Part shown: piece by piece, positions 47,007 through 55,974 of the stretch | Position numbering within the stretch: position 1 is the stretch's first letter | Layout: each line of letters starts with the position of its first letter | Position numbers and translations under genes: made by a program | The notes under the pieces: model-generated | Told to the model about the DNA's origin: nothing | The model's input: the letters and a program-made list of their open reading frames with translations, nothing else | Database searches by the model: none | Assembly: GCA_903831815.1 (NCBI GenBank) | Contig: CAIKZC010000001.1 | Span: forward strand, 85,037-149,036 | Direction: 5' to 3' | Length of the DNA: 64,000 nucleotides | From: an uncultured bacterium | GTDB taxonomy: Bacteria > Patescibacteriota > Minisyncoccia > Phycocordibacterales > UBA11359

Positions 47007-48209
47007 TTAGGCGATGATCTTGGTTACAACACCGGCACCAACAGTCTTACCTCCCTCTCGGATGGCAAAACGCATGTTAGCTTCGAGAGCAACTGGAGCA
47101 ACAAGTTTAACCTTGAAACTTACGTTGTCTCCTGGCATAACCATTTCAGTTCCTTCATTCAAGATAACATCACCAGTTACGTCTGTAGTTCGGATGTAGA
47201 ATTGTGGCTTGTATCCAGCAAAGAATGGAGTATGTCGTCCACCTTCCTCTTTCTTCAAAATCAAAGCTTCTGCTTCGAATTCTGTATGAGGAGTGGTTGT
47301 ACCTGGCTTGCAGAGCACCTGACCTCGAGTTACGTCTTCTTTCTTAAGACCTCGGAGGAGTACGCCGGCATTGTCGCCTGCCATACCTTTATCAAGTTGC
47401 TTGTTGAAAGCTTCGATACCGGTAACGGTTGATTTCTGAGTTGGTTTAAGTCCAACAATTTCAACATCATCACCAATATTGATAACACCTCGTTCGATAC
47501 GACCGGTTACAACTGTACCTCGACCTTCAATTGAGAAGATGTCTTCGATTGGCATCAAGAATGGTTTATCGATATCTCGAACAGGCATTGGAATGTAAGT
47601 ATCCAAAGCGTTTAGAAGATTTTCGATTCCGGCGATTCCTTCTGGAGTACCAGCAAGAGCTTGAGTAGCTGAACCGCGGATAATTGGAGCGGTTTTGCCA
47701 TCAAATCCATATTTGGTCAAAAGTTCACGAACTTCTTCCTCGATAAGATCCAAAAGATCTTTATCAGGCACCAAGTCAACTTTGTTTAGGAAAACAACGA
47801 TCTTAGGTACACCGACTTGTTTAGCCAAGAGAATGTGCTCTCGAGTTTGAGGCATAGGACCGTCAACTGCGGAAACAACAAGAATAGCACCGTCCATTTG
47901 AGCGGCACCAGTAATCATGTTCTTTACATAGTCAGCGTGACCTGGGCAGTCAACGTGAGCATAGTGACGAGTCGCGGTTGAATACTCAACGTGCGAAATC
48001 GCGATAGTAACGATTTTGGTAGGATCACGTCGGCCGTCCTTTTCAGAAGCCTTAGCAACTTGATCATACGCAATAGCTTTAGCAAGACCCTTACCTGCCT
48101 GAACAGCTGTAATAGCTGCAGTCAAAGTAGTCTTACCGTGGTCAACGTGACCGATGGTGCCAACGTTTACGTGTGGCTTTGATCGATCAAAAACAGCTGC
48201 ATCTGCCAT
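47007..48209 (-). CDS. tuf: Elongation factor Tu
   Basis: [22 protein letters not shown]. Confidence 0.95.
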
Positions 48210-51292: not shown

Positions 51293-51721
51293 ATAATAAT
51301 AATTAATAAGCTAAAGCTTTTTTTGACGTCACTCGGACGGATATGAGAATAAGACTCTCATATCCGTCCTCATTAGTCAAAATAAAAAAGGGCGTTGACC
51401 CTACTAATAAGTACCCGTGATTGTAGCGTAAAAGGTTGAAAGTGTAAAGAAAACGGATCCCCGAATCAATTACCTGCTATAATAATCCCAGATTGGTTAT
51501 ATTGAACGGTTACGGCTTTTCAAGACCTTTTGGACTCATGCATATTGAGAGCGCGGACGGTTACGGCTTTCCACGGAGGATATGCATGGTAGTCAACAAA
51601 AAAGAAAATACTTGGTGCGACGTGTTGGTTGATTTTTGATCACATATAAAATACAGTCCGGTCTCTTCCATTTTTTTTGGACTAGATGGACAGTGGAATA
51701 GATGACACGTCGCACAACACC

Positions 51722-51846
51722 GACTCTAACGGCAACCCGAACGTTTTCAATCTCGAACACAACGATGATGGTTTGTGGCTGAACAACAATTGGGCGAAAC
51801 CCGACAATGAGTGGAATCCGAACAACAAGTTCGCGTTCCGTCTCCG
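51722..51846 (+). repeat. DGR template repeat (TR), 125 nt
   Basis: Aligns with VR 53314-53438 (minus strand) with about 27 mismatches, all at TR adenines, plus one synonymous G/A. Followed by hairpin CCGCGAttttacaagTCGCGG at 51862-51882. Confidence 0.85.
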
Positions 51847-51868
51847 AAACTGTTTTCTTTCCGCGATT

Positions 51869-52216
51869 TTACAAGTCGCGGTTTTTCTTTTCTGGATTTA
51901 CCAGACTTTTCTTCCAACCACCAAGCATTTTGCCAACATCTTCAAGTTTCAGGGCAACATCTTCATATTGTTTGTCAGAAATGAGCTTACCCTCCCACGC
52001 AACCGAAATCAGAAACTTCAAGGTATCCAGAATCAAAATACATTTTGAAATCTTTTCCAATTTCTTTTCTTTTTCTGTAAAATAAGCAATATAAGCCCAA
52101 TCGAGCAAATCAAGAAATTTATTTTCAATTCGAGAGCCAATAGTATAACGAGACCCTTTAGCAATATGAGGAACAATGTTAACCCAAACCAAATACCCCT
52201 CTTTGATTCTATTCAA
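51869..52216 (-). CDS. avd: DGR accessory variability determinant (Avd, four-helix-bundle family)
   Basis: 115 aa. C-terminal ...LKLEDVGKMLGGWKKSL and N-terminal YLVWVNIVPHIAKGSRYTIG match the bAvd/four-helix-bundle family pattern. On the strand opposite to the RT, overlapping the RT ORF 5-prime end. Confidence 0.65.
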   Translation of the reverse strand: MNRIKEGYLVWVNIVPHIAKGSRYTIGSRIENKFLDLLDWAYIAYFTEKEKKLEKISKCILILDTLKFLISVAWEGKLISDKQYEDVALKLEDVGKMLGGWKKSLVNPEKKNRDL

Positions 52217-53285
52217 AATCGAGGCGTTATCGAGAGAGAGAGAGAGAGAGAGTAAACTGCGGTTTGGTCATATCTATGATGATATCATTTCTATTAAAAA
52301 CTTGCTCATAGCATGGCGCGAATTTTTGCGCAACAAACGCGACCGAAAAGATGTCGAAAGATTTTCACTTCATTTAATGGATAACGTGTTAGCGCTTCAC
52401 CGTGAACTTATAAACAAAACTTACCATCACGGACACTATAAAGCTTTCAAAATCAATGATCCAAAACCCCGTGACATTCACAAAGCGAGTGTTCGGGATC
52501 GACTTTTACACCACGCAATTTACCGAATTTTATATCCATATTTTGATCCTAAATTTATTTTTGATTCGTACTCCTGTCGAAATGTTAAAGGCACGCATCG
52601 TGCCGTAAATCGTTTTCGTAAATATGCTCGCAAAGTTTCAAAAAACCACACCCGAACTGTTTGGATTTTAAAATGTGATATCAGAAAATTTTTTGCCAAT
52701 ATTGATCACAAAATTTTACTAGATATTTTAAAACGACGCATGAGTAATAAAGACACTGTTTGGTTACTAAATGAAGTTATTAAAAGTTTTAACACTAAAA
52801 ATAAATCGGATGTTGGTTTGCCGCTAGGCAATCTTACCAGCCAACTTCTTGTGAATATATACATGAATGAATTTGATCATTTTATCAAACGAAATTTGAA
52901 AATTGCTTATTATGCCAGATATGCAGATGATTTTATTGTTTTGCACGAAAACAAAGAATATCTCAAGGGTATTCTGCCAACAATATCAGAATTTCTAGAA
53001 ACACACCTAAAATTATCACTCCATCCAAACAAAGTTTCCATAAAAACAATTTCTTCTGGAGTCGATTTTTTAGGCTGGGTCAGTTTTCCACACCACAGAG
53101 TTTTACGCAACTCTACAAAAAAGAGGATGTTCAGAAACTTAAATCGAGATCCGAAAAAAGAATCTTTGGCCTCTTATCAAGGACTCTTAAGTCGCGGCGA
53201 TACACATAAATTGAAACAAATGATATCAGAAAAATATTTCGAAAAGAATCAAAGAAACCAAGAGCCAAAGGTTCAGAAAAATTAA
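52176..53285 (+). CDS. DGR reverse transcriptase; true start uncertain (may lie downstream of the (GA)10 tract)
   Basis: RT motifs: LKCDIRKFFANIDHKIL (motif 2), GLPLGNLTSQLLVNIYMNEFD (motif 4/B), YARYADDFIV (YxDD catalytic), LHPNK...GWV. Confidence 0.85.
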   Translation: MLTQTKYPSLILFKIEALSRERERESKLRFGHIYDDIISIKNLLIAWREFLRNKRDRKDVERFSLHLMDNVLALHRELINKTYHHGHYKAFKINDPKPRDIHKASVRDRLLHHAIYRILYPYFDPKFIFDSYSCRNVKGTHRAVNRFRKYARKVSKNHTRTVWILKCDIRKFFANIDHKILLDILKRRMSNKDTVWLLNEVIKSFNTKNKSDVGLPLGNLTSQLLVNIYMNEFDHFIKRNLKIAYYARYADDFIVLHENKEYLKGILPTISEFLETHLKLSLHPNKVSIKTISSGVDFLGWVSFPHHRVLRNSTKKRMFRNLNRDPKKESLASYQGLLSRGDTHKLKQMISEKYFEKNQRNQEPKVQKN

Positions 53286-53297
53286 GAGTAAAAGACT

Positions 53298-55142
53298 CTA
53301 AGTTTTAGACTTGCGGAGACGGAACGCGAACTCGTAGCCCGGATCCCACCCAAAGCCGGGCATCGCCCAAGCGCTGTACAGCCATAAACCAACACCGCGG
53401 CGTTCGAGATTGAAAACGCACGGGCTGCCGTCAGAGTCGGAGATTTGTTTCATACCAACAACAAACCAGTCACCTAAAGGCTGATTTTTATATTGCAGAC
53501 GATAATTAGGTCCTGTATCGGCGGGACACAATTCCAACCCAAGGGCTTGTGCTCGTTCATAAATTTGATCAGTTGTGGCGTTTGTTTTGAAACCAAGATC
53601 AGCAACCGTTAAACGAATCAGTGTGGCAGTTTCAATATTTTTGCCAGTCACAAATTCACGACTTTTGAGCATAAATTCGACATTATCAGAAATTTTTATG
53701 CCATCTTTTTTCAATTCACTTAATAAGTGTTCACCAGTTTTGCCTCCTATCTCAACACTTTCTCGGCTAATTTTCTTTTCCGGAAAGGAAGTGTAAACGT
53801 GTTCAAGATTGTCTGGTAGTTTTTGGAAAATACCGGGTTCGAGTTGTCCGACATATACCTTGGTGTTTTCATTTATTTGACTTGGAACGTGTGCAATCTG
53901 TTCTTTTGTGCACTCAAAGATAACCAACACGTCTTCTTCAACATTTCTATTGGTTCGTAATTCGACAATACGTGGGTCACGTTCGTAACCAAAACCTTCA
54001 ATCGGTGTGTTAATTTCGTAGAGAAAAATCAAATCATCTTTGGTAAAGGCTTCGCCTTTTTCGTGTTTTTGATCCAAAGCAGTAAGCTTTTTCATGTCCT
54101 CACTTTTTTTGCGATACGCATCGGCTTCCGTGCCAAATTCTGCAAGCTTAGTATCCAATACCTCCTGAAAAATTGGTTCAACATCTTGATGGGGTAGAAG
54201 CCCGCGGATTTGACCGATTTGGTTGCCAGTCATTTGGATTGCGAGGCGTGGCTGAGTGGGATTGCCGTCATTGTCGTAAGTATAATAAACATAAAAATCT
54301 CCTTGCTTGTTGTAGCTGTGCGCAGTTGCCTTGCCTTCAATACACCAACCAGCTCCACCTGTCTTCCCTTCCACAGATTGCCATAGTCTATCAGCATCAT
54401 TAGAATTGTTAGCTTCATATTTTATCCACGTTCCTTGTATTTCTTCCTTATTTTCGATTTTGGAAGCCAGAGAGCCGGCAATAAAATCGGCATATAGAGC
54501 TGGAAATTTCTTGGAAAAATTTTCTCGTATTTCCAGGTCTTTCAGATTTTTGTTGTCATTTTTAACTTTTTCGTAAATATCAAGTATTTTTGCCAACGCA
54601 GCTCGGTTGATATCAGGGAAACGACCCACGGTTGATTCGGTACGAGACTTGAACTTACCTAGTTCTTTGTCGAATTGCGAAAGCTTAATTACCTGATTCC
54701 AAACGTAGTATTTAAACCAAGCAGGGTAAGCAACGTCTTCTTTAGTGAGATAATCCATCCATGTATCGAGAGAGTGCTTCTGATCTTCAATTGCTACATC
54801 CATCATCTGCTCGCGCACGTTTTCAGGAATTACTTCTACAGGTTGCCCACGTTCTCGTGCGATACGTTGCTGAAGTTCAAAATAGCTTTCGGGGAAATTA
54901 TCACGCTTGATTAGCAACGCGTCATATATTTTGTCGCGAAACATTTCAATGTTACGTTCACGTTTTTCTGTATCCGGATTGAGAAAAATATTTTCCAGTC
55001 TATCCATATATGCTTCTATTCTTGCGGTTGGATCATTAGGAACACTTTCACCGGTTCGTTGTTCCTGACGTTCTACTGCACGTTGCACCTCAGGTGAGGT
55101 TTGCAATTCTGGGTTTTTGATATGAAGCGGAAATTTTTCCAT
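53298..55142 (-). CDS. DGR target protein (614 aa) with the variable repeat in its C-terminal 40 aa
   Basis: C-terminus ...SPCVFNLERRGVGLWLYSAWAMPGFGWDPGYEFAFRLRKS is the diversified counterpart of TR-encoded ...NVFNLEHNDDGLWLNNNWAKPDNEWNPNNKFAFRLRN (Asn AAC codons in TR). VR 53314-53438. Confidence 0.8.
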   Translation of the reverse strand: MEKFPLHIKNPELQTSPEVQRAVERQEQRTGESVPNDPTARIEAYMDRLENIFLNPDTEKRERNIEMFRDKIYDALLIKRDNFPESYFELQQRIARERGQPVEVIPENVREQMMDVAIEDQKHSLDTWMDYLTKEDVAYPAWFKYYVWNQVIKLSQFDKELGKFKSRTESTVGRFPDINRAALAKILDIYEKVKNDNKNLKDLEIRENFSKKFPALYADFIAGSLASKIENKEEIQGTWIKYEANNSNDADRLWQSVEGKTGGAGWCIEGKATAHSYNKQGDFYVYYTYDNDGNPTQPRLAIQMTGNQIGQIRGLLPHQDVEPIFQEVLDTKLAEFGTEADAYRKKSEDMKKLTALDQKHEKGEAFTKDDLIFLYEINTPIEGFGYERDPRIVELRTNRNVEEDVLVIFECTKEQIAHVPSQINENTKVYVGQLEPGIFQKLPDNLEHVYTSFPEKKISRESVEIGGKTGEHLLSELKKDGIKISDNVEFMLKSREFVTGKNIETATLIRLTVADLGFKTNATTDQIYERAQALGLELCPADTGPNYRLQYKNQPLGDWFVVGMKQISDSDGSPCVFNLERRGVGLWLYSAWAMPGFGWDPGYEFAFRLRKSKT

Positions 55143-55143
55143 A

Positions 55144-55365
55144 TTATTTTATTTTCTTAGCAAGCTCACGCAAGTCACCATAAAGAACTTTTCCTTCTCC
55201 TAACTCGCTTTCGGCTTGGAGAACAGCATTAACCGCCTCGTCCTCAGCAAAATGATCGAGAGCTTTGTGTACAACTTCAACTTTGTTATTTGCATTTCCA
55301 GCTTTTATATAGGCCGCAATAAAGGCTTCTTGTTTTGCGGTAATTGATATTGATAACGTAGTCAT
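55144..55365 (-). CDS. Ribbon-helix-helix (ParD/CopG-like) small protein, translationally coupled (TAAtATG) to the DGR target
   Basis: 73 aa. TLSISITAKQEAFIAAYIKAGNANNKVEVVHKALDHF aligns with ParD-family antitoxin ...[33 protein letters not shown]. Confidence 0.5.
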   Translation of the reverse strand: MTTLSISITAKQEAFIAAYIKAGNANNKVEVVHKALDHFAEDEAVNAVLQAESELGEGKVLYGDLRELAKKIK

Positions 55366-55467: not shown

Positions 55468-55974
55468 TTACCCATGAAAACCAATTCTCGGTTTTTCCTT
55501 CTCTTTTGGTTGAATTGGAGGTTCCATAAGTTGTTTTATAGCTCGAAAAACAACTTGAAAATGTTGATCGTATTTTTTCTCCAACTCATCCAATCGACGA
55601 ACCAAGTCTTTGTTAACAGAAAGAATTTGGCGCAATTTTATAAAAGTCCTTACTATTGCCACACTCATAACAATAGCTTGTGGACTGTTTAATACGTTAG
55701 CCGCCATCAATGCACCATGCTCAGTAAATGCATATGGCAAGTAACGACGCCCGCCATAACTTGAGGTCACAAATTGTGACCTCAAGTTTTGCACTTCTTC
55801 CAAACTCAACTGAAACATAAAATCTTCAGGAAAACGATCAGGATTCCTTTTAACTGCCTGATTTAAAACCTTTGTCTCCACACCATACAAATTTGCCAAA
55901 TCCCTGTCCAAAATCACCTTTTGATTACGAATAATTAAAATTGCCTGTTCTACCCTCTCCAGTTTTTTATTCAT
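55468..55974 (-). CDS. ORF6N-domain (KilA-N-like) protein, paralog 2
   Basis: ...IRNQKVILDRDLANLYGVETKVLNQAVKRNPDRFPEDFMFQLS...LRSQFVTSSYGGRRYLPYAFTEHGALMAANVL. The LRSQFVTSS motif is encoded by the 27-nt perfect palindrome CTTGAGGTCACAAATTGTGACCTCAAG (55769-55795). Confidence 0.8.
   Translation of the reverse strand: MNKKLERVEQAILIIRNQKVILDRDLANLYGVETKVLNQAVKRNPDRFPEDFMFQLSLEEVQNLRSQFVTSSYGGRRYLPYAFTEHGALMAANVLNSPQAIVMSVAIVRTFIKLRQILSVNKDLVRRLDELEKKYDQHFQVVFRAIKQLMEPPIQPKEKEKPRIGFHG

Follow-up and report, generated by a model that had tools for sequence, protein, structure and literature searches.

The stretch of DNA analyzed here (hereafter the window; 64,000 nucleotides [nt], G+C content 42%) carries a diversity-generating retroelement (DGR) in which the avd gene and the gene for the reverse transcriptase (RT) are divergent and meet, at their 5′ ends, in a perfect dinucleotide repeat. 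This repeat is probably the working part of a frameshift (phase-variation) switch set in a codon-aligned overlap of avd and RT. The tract is hypervariable in length and present throughout a family of related DGRs, selection keeps open both open reading frames (ORFs) that cross it, and the frame of each gene follows arithmetically from the repeat number. With somewhat more reserve, we favor the same reading for a large DGR family of the candidate phyla radiation (CPR)/Patescibacteria, in which one hypermutable repeat would randomly switch the hypermutation machinery and produce bursts of target-gene diversification in subpopulations.

A hypermutable repeat at the avd/RT junction

At positions 52232–52252 the window reads GAGAGAGAGAGAGAGAGAGAG, that is, (GA)10 plus G; the avd strand reads C(TC)10. 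A first-pass annotation, made from the sequence alone, had reported a perfect (GA)10 at the avd/RT junction, 16 nt from the TTG codon at 52216 that opens the mechanically called avd ORF (minus strand) and within the RT reading frame; the sequence agrees on each count, the mechanically called RT ORF (52176–53285) reading SRERERES at this place. Its further statement that the window holds no second such tract is also correct for dinucleotide repeats of at least 5 units, and in 100 first-order Markov simulations of the 64-kb window, which set the chance level, the longest dinucleotide run was 4–6 units, compared with the 10 observed. The features of the junction are as follows.

52232–52252, no strand assigned: simple sequence repeat (GA)10G, common to the predicted 5′ coding regions of avd and RT; unique in the window
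51869–52231, minus strand: body of avd, encoding a bAvd four-helix-bundle protein (Pfam PF22296, E = 2e-13); stop codon at 51869–51871
52253–52268, minus strand: predicted avd 5′ leader, codons TKPQF plus the first base of a Thr codon, between the start ATG and the repeat
52269–52271, minus strand: ATG proposed as the true start of avd, exactly complementary to CAT, the codon for RT His32, with a stop-free frame to the tract
52253–53285, plus strand: body of the DGR reverse transcriptase, with family-wide protein conservation from His32 (52269)
52166–52168, plus strand: conserved RT-side start ATG in frame B (MRNNVNPNQ...), exact complement of the avd His17 codon
52176–52178, plus strand: secondary ATG in frame A (with TTG 52203), the only canonical start ATG in the RT frame at 10 repeat units

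The window was compared with 80 related DGR loci from CPR/Patescibacteria genomes (581,595 nt in total), hundreds of relatives (~580) having been detected. Such a tract, often in the form of poly-G, characterizes the CPR DGR family as a whole and is not peculiar to the source genome. RT homologues at 60–75% identity, all from CPR/Patescibacteria, also show RERERE just before the conserved N-terminus, and avd is divergent from RT in 76/76 loci with enough upstream DNA. The junctions of the 80 loci include 22 (GA)n tracts of 11–46 nt, 43 poly-G tracts of 7–13 nt and 3 hybrids, with (GA)5–23 in the GA-type relatives; one locus (L048) has a 7-nt repeat, (GATTGCT)n, and another (L069) an inverted (CT)n, and only three (L075, L051, and L035) are without any junction repeat. 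When a junction repeat was counted as a G/C run of at least 8 or at least 6 dinucleotide units, no more than 170 nt upstream of the RT Ile37 codon, long simple repeats numbered 72 at the junction vs. 2 elsewhere in the 80 loci. The site has recruited at least four different repeat types, which suggests that what is selected is slipperiness and not sequence.

Some individual junctions deserve separate mention. The 7-nt repeat of L048 (L048:3900–4030) comprises ~9 GATTGCT copies inside the avd ORF, read as SNQQSAI repeats; the ORF is currently in frame, at 154 amino acids (aa). L098, which is 88.7% identical to the window locus, has a decayed tract, (GA)4 followed by AAGAAAG, with an RT ATG directly after it, and encodes a 107-aa Avd core identical to that of the window despite the decay; at this locus the switch may be on its way to being lost. 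In P0143 (poly-G, in the cluster of P0004) the junction appears to have been duplicated in tandem, as both a GGGG-coded stretch and a ...HxY.NI.SV motif occur twice.

Length variation of the tract

The number of GA units (n), taken throughout from assemblies and not from reads, differs among genomes that are otherwise the same. At the window locus, n = 10 is found in the window, in L095 and L096 (100% identical) and in L082 (differing at 15/1,707 positions); L001 is identical to the window over 1,837 nt except for one GA unit fewer (n = 9) and has the same variable repeat (VR), and L097 is identical except for three units fewer (n = 7). The hypermutability proposed for the tract is therefore visible in (GA)7, (GA)9, and (GA)10 alleles within otherwise identical contigs. 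In a related strain sampled in a metagenome series, 11 contigs with RT 100% identical over the 954 nt compared have n = 5, 9, 10, 12 (four contigs), 13 (three contigs), and 15, and the only other variable stretch among them is the VR. In L083–L093 the VR lies 130–175 nt downstream of the RT stop codon and its sequence differs in nearly every sample's contig; such differences at an invariant RT suggest that the DGR family is actively diversifying in nature.

The same holds for protein records. RT clusters with 0–4 differences over 311–336 core residues hold several tract lengths, and their N-termini take three forms, namely LIxxxIEAxS(RE)n..., MRNNxNPNQ...(ER)n..., and one truncated in the gene call. 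The N-terminal forms within GA-type clusters fit all three frame states, and the poly-G clusters are likewise varied. Repeat-number polymorphism among otherwise identical or near-identical genomes, as expected of a contingency locus, is thus directly observed. A DNA-pattern scan of metagenome contigs for further alleles returned a single contig. At two loci (L004:1–60 and L074:640–700), contig breaks, N runs or very long poly-C fall exactly at the junction tract; assembly, and possibly two-color sequencing chemistry, seems to be disrupted by the repeat, so the tract lengths at these two junctions are unreliable.

Probable translation of avd through the repeat

Avd most likely starts at the ATG at 52271 and is read through the repeat, because the protein is conserved right up to the tract and the frame from this ATG to the tract is free of stop codons in 53/53 loci. 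The conserved DNASILNRIKEGY segment of avd begins directly after the repeat. In GA loci the residues that follow the tract are [DGS]-x-A-S-[IV]-L-x-[RK]-I-K-E-G-Y, the Ser being encoded by TCG, TCT, AGT, or AGC; in poly-G loci the corresponding segment is x-I-L-P-V-L-E-R-V-K, and most loci have no canonical avd start between the tract and the conserved motif. The TTG at 52216, which had been taken for the avd start codon, is a Leu codon of the family, TTG in about one-third of the GA-type loci and CTN in most others. The mechanically called ORF that it opens (51869–52216, minus strand) is the one that matches Pfam bAvd (E = 2e-13); an exact look-up of the corresponding 115-aa Avd found nothing, and the database gene call (P0209) starts at TTG 52192.

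On the far side of the tract, the frame of the ATG at 52271 contains 0 stops in 474 codons over the 53 testable loci, whereas the two remaining frames contain 50 and 65. In 32 poly-G loci the frame of the ATG that complements His32 has 0 stops in 359 codons (39 and 60 in the others) and is fully open in 32/32, vs. 3 and 2 (p ~7e-24); in 18 GA loci the counts are 0 stops in 96 codons vs. 9 and 4. Among the 120 best database homologues of Avd, 81 carry (LS)n upstream of the conserved motif, a count biased by the LS stretch in the query, and 6 carry poly-Pro; the typical N-terminus of the (LS)n-bearing proteins is M-T-[RK]-P-x-x-x-(LS)n-L-D-x-A-S-I-L. In a Pfam search with the extended Avd, the bAvd match did not reach into the N-terminus.

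The start contexts are also suitable. Genuine genes of the source genome (EF-Tu, EF-G, S7, S12, and the DGR target), examined at window positions 48209, 51292, 55142, 56692, and 57134, are preceded by A/T-rich sequence, often ...ATATG, without a Shine-Dalgarno sequence, and the contexts of ATG 52166 (AATATG) and ATG 52271 (GATATG) resemble them. The tract is probably not in the promoter or untranslated region of avd. The earlier expectation that a slip of one unit would either shift the RT frame or alter the avd promoter or untranslated region survives in its first half, as RT loses its upstream start, but not in its second, as avd is probably coding through the tract.

Probable translation of RT through the repeat

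In GA-type loci RT is probably read through the tract from an upstream ATG. Translations of the window for n = 7–14 show that RT is cut off from its upstream start by the gain or loss of a single GA unit. In the window, no canonical RT start lies in frame between the tract and His32; the next is a TTG at Leu43, which would delete residues that are invariant among homologues (I37, I38, S39, and N42). Mapping the RT start by conservation, as the first-pass annotation had proposed, thus supports an upstream start for the window, but not for every relative, since some homologues have an ATG in this interval, at the place of CTG 52257 in the window.

The three frames upstream of the tract differ in kind. 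Frame B, which is codon-aligned with avd, is open for at least 90 nt and has an ATG 64–78 nt upstream of the tract in 25/25 GA/mixed loci; only part of the related loci have frame A both open and provided with a start; and frame C has no ATG and closes at most ~37 nt from the tract, mostly at ~25 nt. Avoidance of stop codons is also seen in the avd codons on the opposite strand: in the first 20 avd codons after the tract, the Leu and Ser codons that would place a stop in the antisense frame (TTA, CTA, and TCA) number 0/105, vs. 102/453 elsewhere in avd (p = 7.5e-11). Poly-G loci with their own RT ATG after the tract show no such avoidance (45/139), while those without it do (3/53; p = 0.003). 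As most poly-G loci have their own RT ATG, only avd would be switchable in them. In the three repeat-free loci both long ORFs are open and in frame, with an Avd of 129–130 aa, counted from the ATG that complements His32, and an RT that starts MRNN or MRHN.

Frame arithmetic and a model of the proposed switch

Both ORFs share one register, because the start codon of each is the complement of an in-frame conserved His codon of the opposite gene. The states that follow are these.

n = 8, 11, 14: RT in frame from ATG 52166; Avd in frame from ATG 52271 (132–136 aa)
n = 7, 10, 13: RT in frame only with ATG 52176/TTG 52203 (frame A); the Avd ORF from the ATG ends early, after about a dozen residues
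n = 9, 12: RT out of frame; Avd out of frame

At n = 10 the avd ORF from the ATG stops after 14 aa, at the TAA at 52229–52227, and the frame-B ORF ends at the TAA at 52253–52255. The window (n = 10) and L001 (n = 9) are each one slippage step from the state in which both genes are on. RT is in frame B in 8 GA/mixed loci (L006, L011, L016, L018, L022, L029, L046, and L056), and in these same 8 loci avd is in frame with its upstream ATG.

In the model that we propose, avd would be translated on the minus strand from ATG 52271, through the repeat as (Leu-Ser)n, into the DNASILNRIKEGY... body, and RT on the plus strand from ATG 52166, through the repeat as (Glu-Arg)n, into the body that begins at His32; the predicted N-terminal peptides are MTKPQFT(LS)n... 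for Avd and MRNNVNPNQIPLFDSIQNRGVI(ER)n... for RT. Slipped-strand mispairing during replication would alter n by whole units, and such changes would toggle Avd on and off at random, and RT too in GA-type loci, so that DGR mutagenesis would itself be phase-variable. We infer that translation does begin at the ATGs at 52271 and 52166, that function is lost in the out-of-frame states and that Avd is indispensable, as it is in the Bordetella phage DGR. The repeat is, by its predicted coding position, placed such that unit changes would alter expression. The first-pass annotation had suggested a phase-variation switch acting on the mutagenic machinery, and this is the best-supported reading of the locus, but the mechanism would be a frameshift tract shared by two genes and not a change in the avd promoter or untranslated region.

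Evidence against the switch and alternative explanations

Several observations weigh against this model. Avd is in frame with its ATG in 14/51 loci, and with any upstream ATG in 23/68, which is near random; RT frames A, B, and C are represented 11:8:6 in GA/mixed loci; and the enrichment of the in-frame state that would be expected if the ORFs across the tract were real was not found among the assembled loci. A near-random register fits a fast neutral switch, and it equally fits a register that does not matter. In the related strain the VR seems to keep diversifying though most consensus alleles are nominally off; the off state may be leaky, or cells in the on state may be a minority. In four GA-type loci (L002, L003, L006, and L011) an RT ATG follows the tract immediately, which would put RT beyond the reach of the switch there, and in the window TTG 52216, TTG 52192, or CTG 52257 might serve as starts independent of the tract. 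The p-values for stop-codon avoidance also ignore relatedness among the loci. The avoidance of stop codons, the loci free of repeats and the conservation of the ATGs are the grounds for retaining the switch in spite of the random register.

The random register would also follow if slippage occurred in RNA or on the ribosome, where stuttering by RNA polymerase or slippage of a tRNA on (CU)n/(GA)n or poly-C/poly-G would give a little in-frame product from any register. On this view the tract attenuates Avd and RT to low levels, and its length variation in DNA is a by-product. This would account for the apparently diversifying VR in a strain with mostly out-of-frame consensus alleles and for two ORFs kept open across the tract regardless of register, and tRNA-Pro tends to slip by +1 on runs of CCC codons. 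Well-documented transcriptional slippage in bacteria, however, involves runs of A or T and not G/C runs or dinucleotides, the 7-nt repeat of L048 is unlikely to slip at the RNA level, and direct, large variation in DNA (n = 5–15 in one strain) suffices for switching; we regard this explanation as unlikely. There is also no preferred offset, as a fixed programmed frameshift would need: offsets 0, 1, and 2 occur in 14, 22, and 15 loci, and a programmed frameshift is unsupported because no offset is conserved among homologues. It is quite doubtful, too, that the tract is non-coding, either as a spacer between overlapping promoters, like that of hifA/hifB, or as a purine-rich RT leader or ribosome-binding region, with each gene starting on its own side (avd at TTG 52216, RT at CTG 52257 or another non-canonical codon). 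Sequences like a −10 element (TAAACT, TAGAAT, and TAATAT) follow many tracts, a promoter scan gave a weak minus-strand promoter-like site at 52233–52206, some homologues have an RT ATG 1–5 nt after the tract, and the random register would be expected. The scan was not above chance, however (10 sites found vs. 6.0 ± 2.5 expected), no consistent −35 element was found by the tract, and tract lengths of 11–46 nt in GA-type loci do not suit a promoter spacer of 16–18 nt, which together with the coding evidence led us to reject a promoter-spacer switch of the hif or porA type. Against any non-coding role stand the conservation of Avd as a protein up to the tract, with CTN in most relatives at the position of TTG 52216, and the strong avoidance of stop codons in the frames across the tract on both strands. 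A Shine-Dalgarno function of the purine tract was rejected likewise, as the source genome does not use such sequences in its genuine genes and in some loci as much as 53 nt separates poly-G from the RT ATG.

The tract might, lastly, be a neutral microsatellite or a homopurine structure (e.g., H-DNA) that persists by slippage bias under limited repair and switches nothing. Its random register, its widely drifting lengths and the fact that (GA)n and poly-G are both homopurine mirror repeats are consistent with this. The concentration of 72 repeats at the junction, with only 2 in the rest of the 581,595 nt, speaks against a mutational bias of the genome as a whole, the same site hosts the non-homopurine repeat of L048 and the inverted (CT)n of L069, the repeat-free loci keep both ORFs in frame, and the flanking sequence is kept open for translation on both strands; a neutral tract thus seems very improbable.

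Relation to known systems

The closest mechanism appears, by analogy, to be classical repeat-mediated phase variation, as in the CT-repeat switches of Helicobacter pylori and the poly-G loci of Campylobacter and Neisseria. In H. pylori oipA, sabA, and hopZ, a CT/GA repeat lies just after the start codon, and slippage shifts the frame of the gene body. The locus described here resembles these switches in having a CT/GA repeat in the 5′ coding region, with alleles that differ between otherwise near-identical strains; it differs in that one repeat serves two divergent, antiparallel, codon-aligned overlapping genes, and in that a mutagenesis machine rather than a surface protein is encoded, in CPR/Patescibacteria hosts. 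In Haemophilus influenzae a (TA)n tract between the divergent hifA and hifBCDE sets the spacing of the −10 and −35 elements within a narrow length range. As at hif, a single dinucleotide repeat lies between two divergent units and serves both, but the lengths here (11–46 nt) and the other evidence point to an effect on the reading frame.

Campylobacter jejuni and Neisseria regulate surface structures and restriction-modification genes through poly-G/C contingency loci (PMC8437040, PMC5084427). The poly-G members of the present family are similar in having G8–G13 inside ORFs, length polymorphism at the strain level and, by prediction, on/off frameshifting; none of those loci is reported as controlling a DGR or as being shared by two divergent ORFs that overlap. 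The cassette of Bordetella phage BPP-1 comprises mtd-VR, avd, the template repeat (TR), and brt, with avd, TR, and brt co-oriented and no repeat described (PMC5758913, PMC3240598). Shared with BPP-1 are an RT with LGNLTSQ, an Avd four-helix bundle, adenine-specific TR/VR differences and a VR at the 3′ end of the target; here, unlike in BPP-1, avd is inverted between TR and RT, and the 5′ ends of avd and RT overlap by ~100 nt, with the repeat inside the overlap.

The signals and regulation of mutagenic retrohoming were described in a study of Bacteroides DGRs in 2024 as still awaiting discovery (bioRxiv 10.1101/2024.11.15.621889). Nothing linking DGRs to simple repeats or phase variation was found in the literature searched, which did not include the main survey of CPR DGRs (Paul et al., 2017). 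If the model is correct, regulation by a frameshift repeat would be an unreported way of controlling DGRs; a whole DGR clade in ultra-small bacteria would gate hypermutation by a random genetic switch, and the cost of mutating the target would be confined to a subpopulation. A single repeat serving two head-to-head overlapping ORFs would also be an unusual gene architecture. For annotation, it matters that gene callers misplace the starts of avd and RT in CPR DGR genomes, so that the proteins are truncated or variably extended.

Architecture and neighborhood of the DGR

The locus is a DGR by its TR/VR adenine pattern, its DGR-type RT and its Avd. Its elements are laid out as TR (plus strand), inverted avd (minus), RT (plus) and target (minus), and those outside the junction are the following.

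51713–51849, plus strand: TR, 137 nt, on the RT strand upstream of the inverted avd
51861–51881, plus strand: G+C-rich hairpin (CCGCGA...TCGCGG) followed by a T run, directly after TR; overlaps the avd stop codon
53298–55142, minus strand: DGR target gene, 614 aa, no Pfam match, convergent with RT and ending in VR
53311–53447, minus strand: VR, 3′ end of the target gene

TR and VR are 79% complementary over 137 nt, and 27/29 mismatches fall at TR adenines. The mechanically called RT ORF (plus strand) matches RVT_1 (E = 2e-25), and its translation contains LGNLTSQ, an instance of the DGR-clade motif [ILV]GxxxSQ that is invariant in the family alignment. The hairpin at 51861–51881 may be the terminator of a short stand-alone TR RNA; were TR RNA to end there, TR and RT would be transcribed separately, on either side of the inverted avd. 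An Rfam scan of 51300–53500 gave no match. Long-range pairing of (GA)n with a pyrimidine-rich stretch after TR was considered and set aside, since the Lys/Glu-rich C-terminus of avd, encoded on the opposite strand, accounts for the pyrimidines.

Directly upstream of the target gene lies a 73-aa ORF without Pfam match (55144–55365, minus strand), and beyond it a gene for an ORF6N-domain protein (55468–55974, minus strand; PF10543, E = 5e-36) that also has a weak Phage_pRha match; the two are possible mobile-element or phage-regulator neighbors of the DGR.

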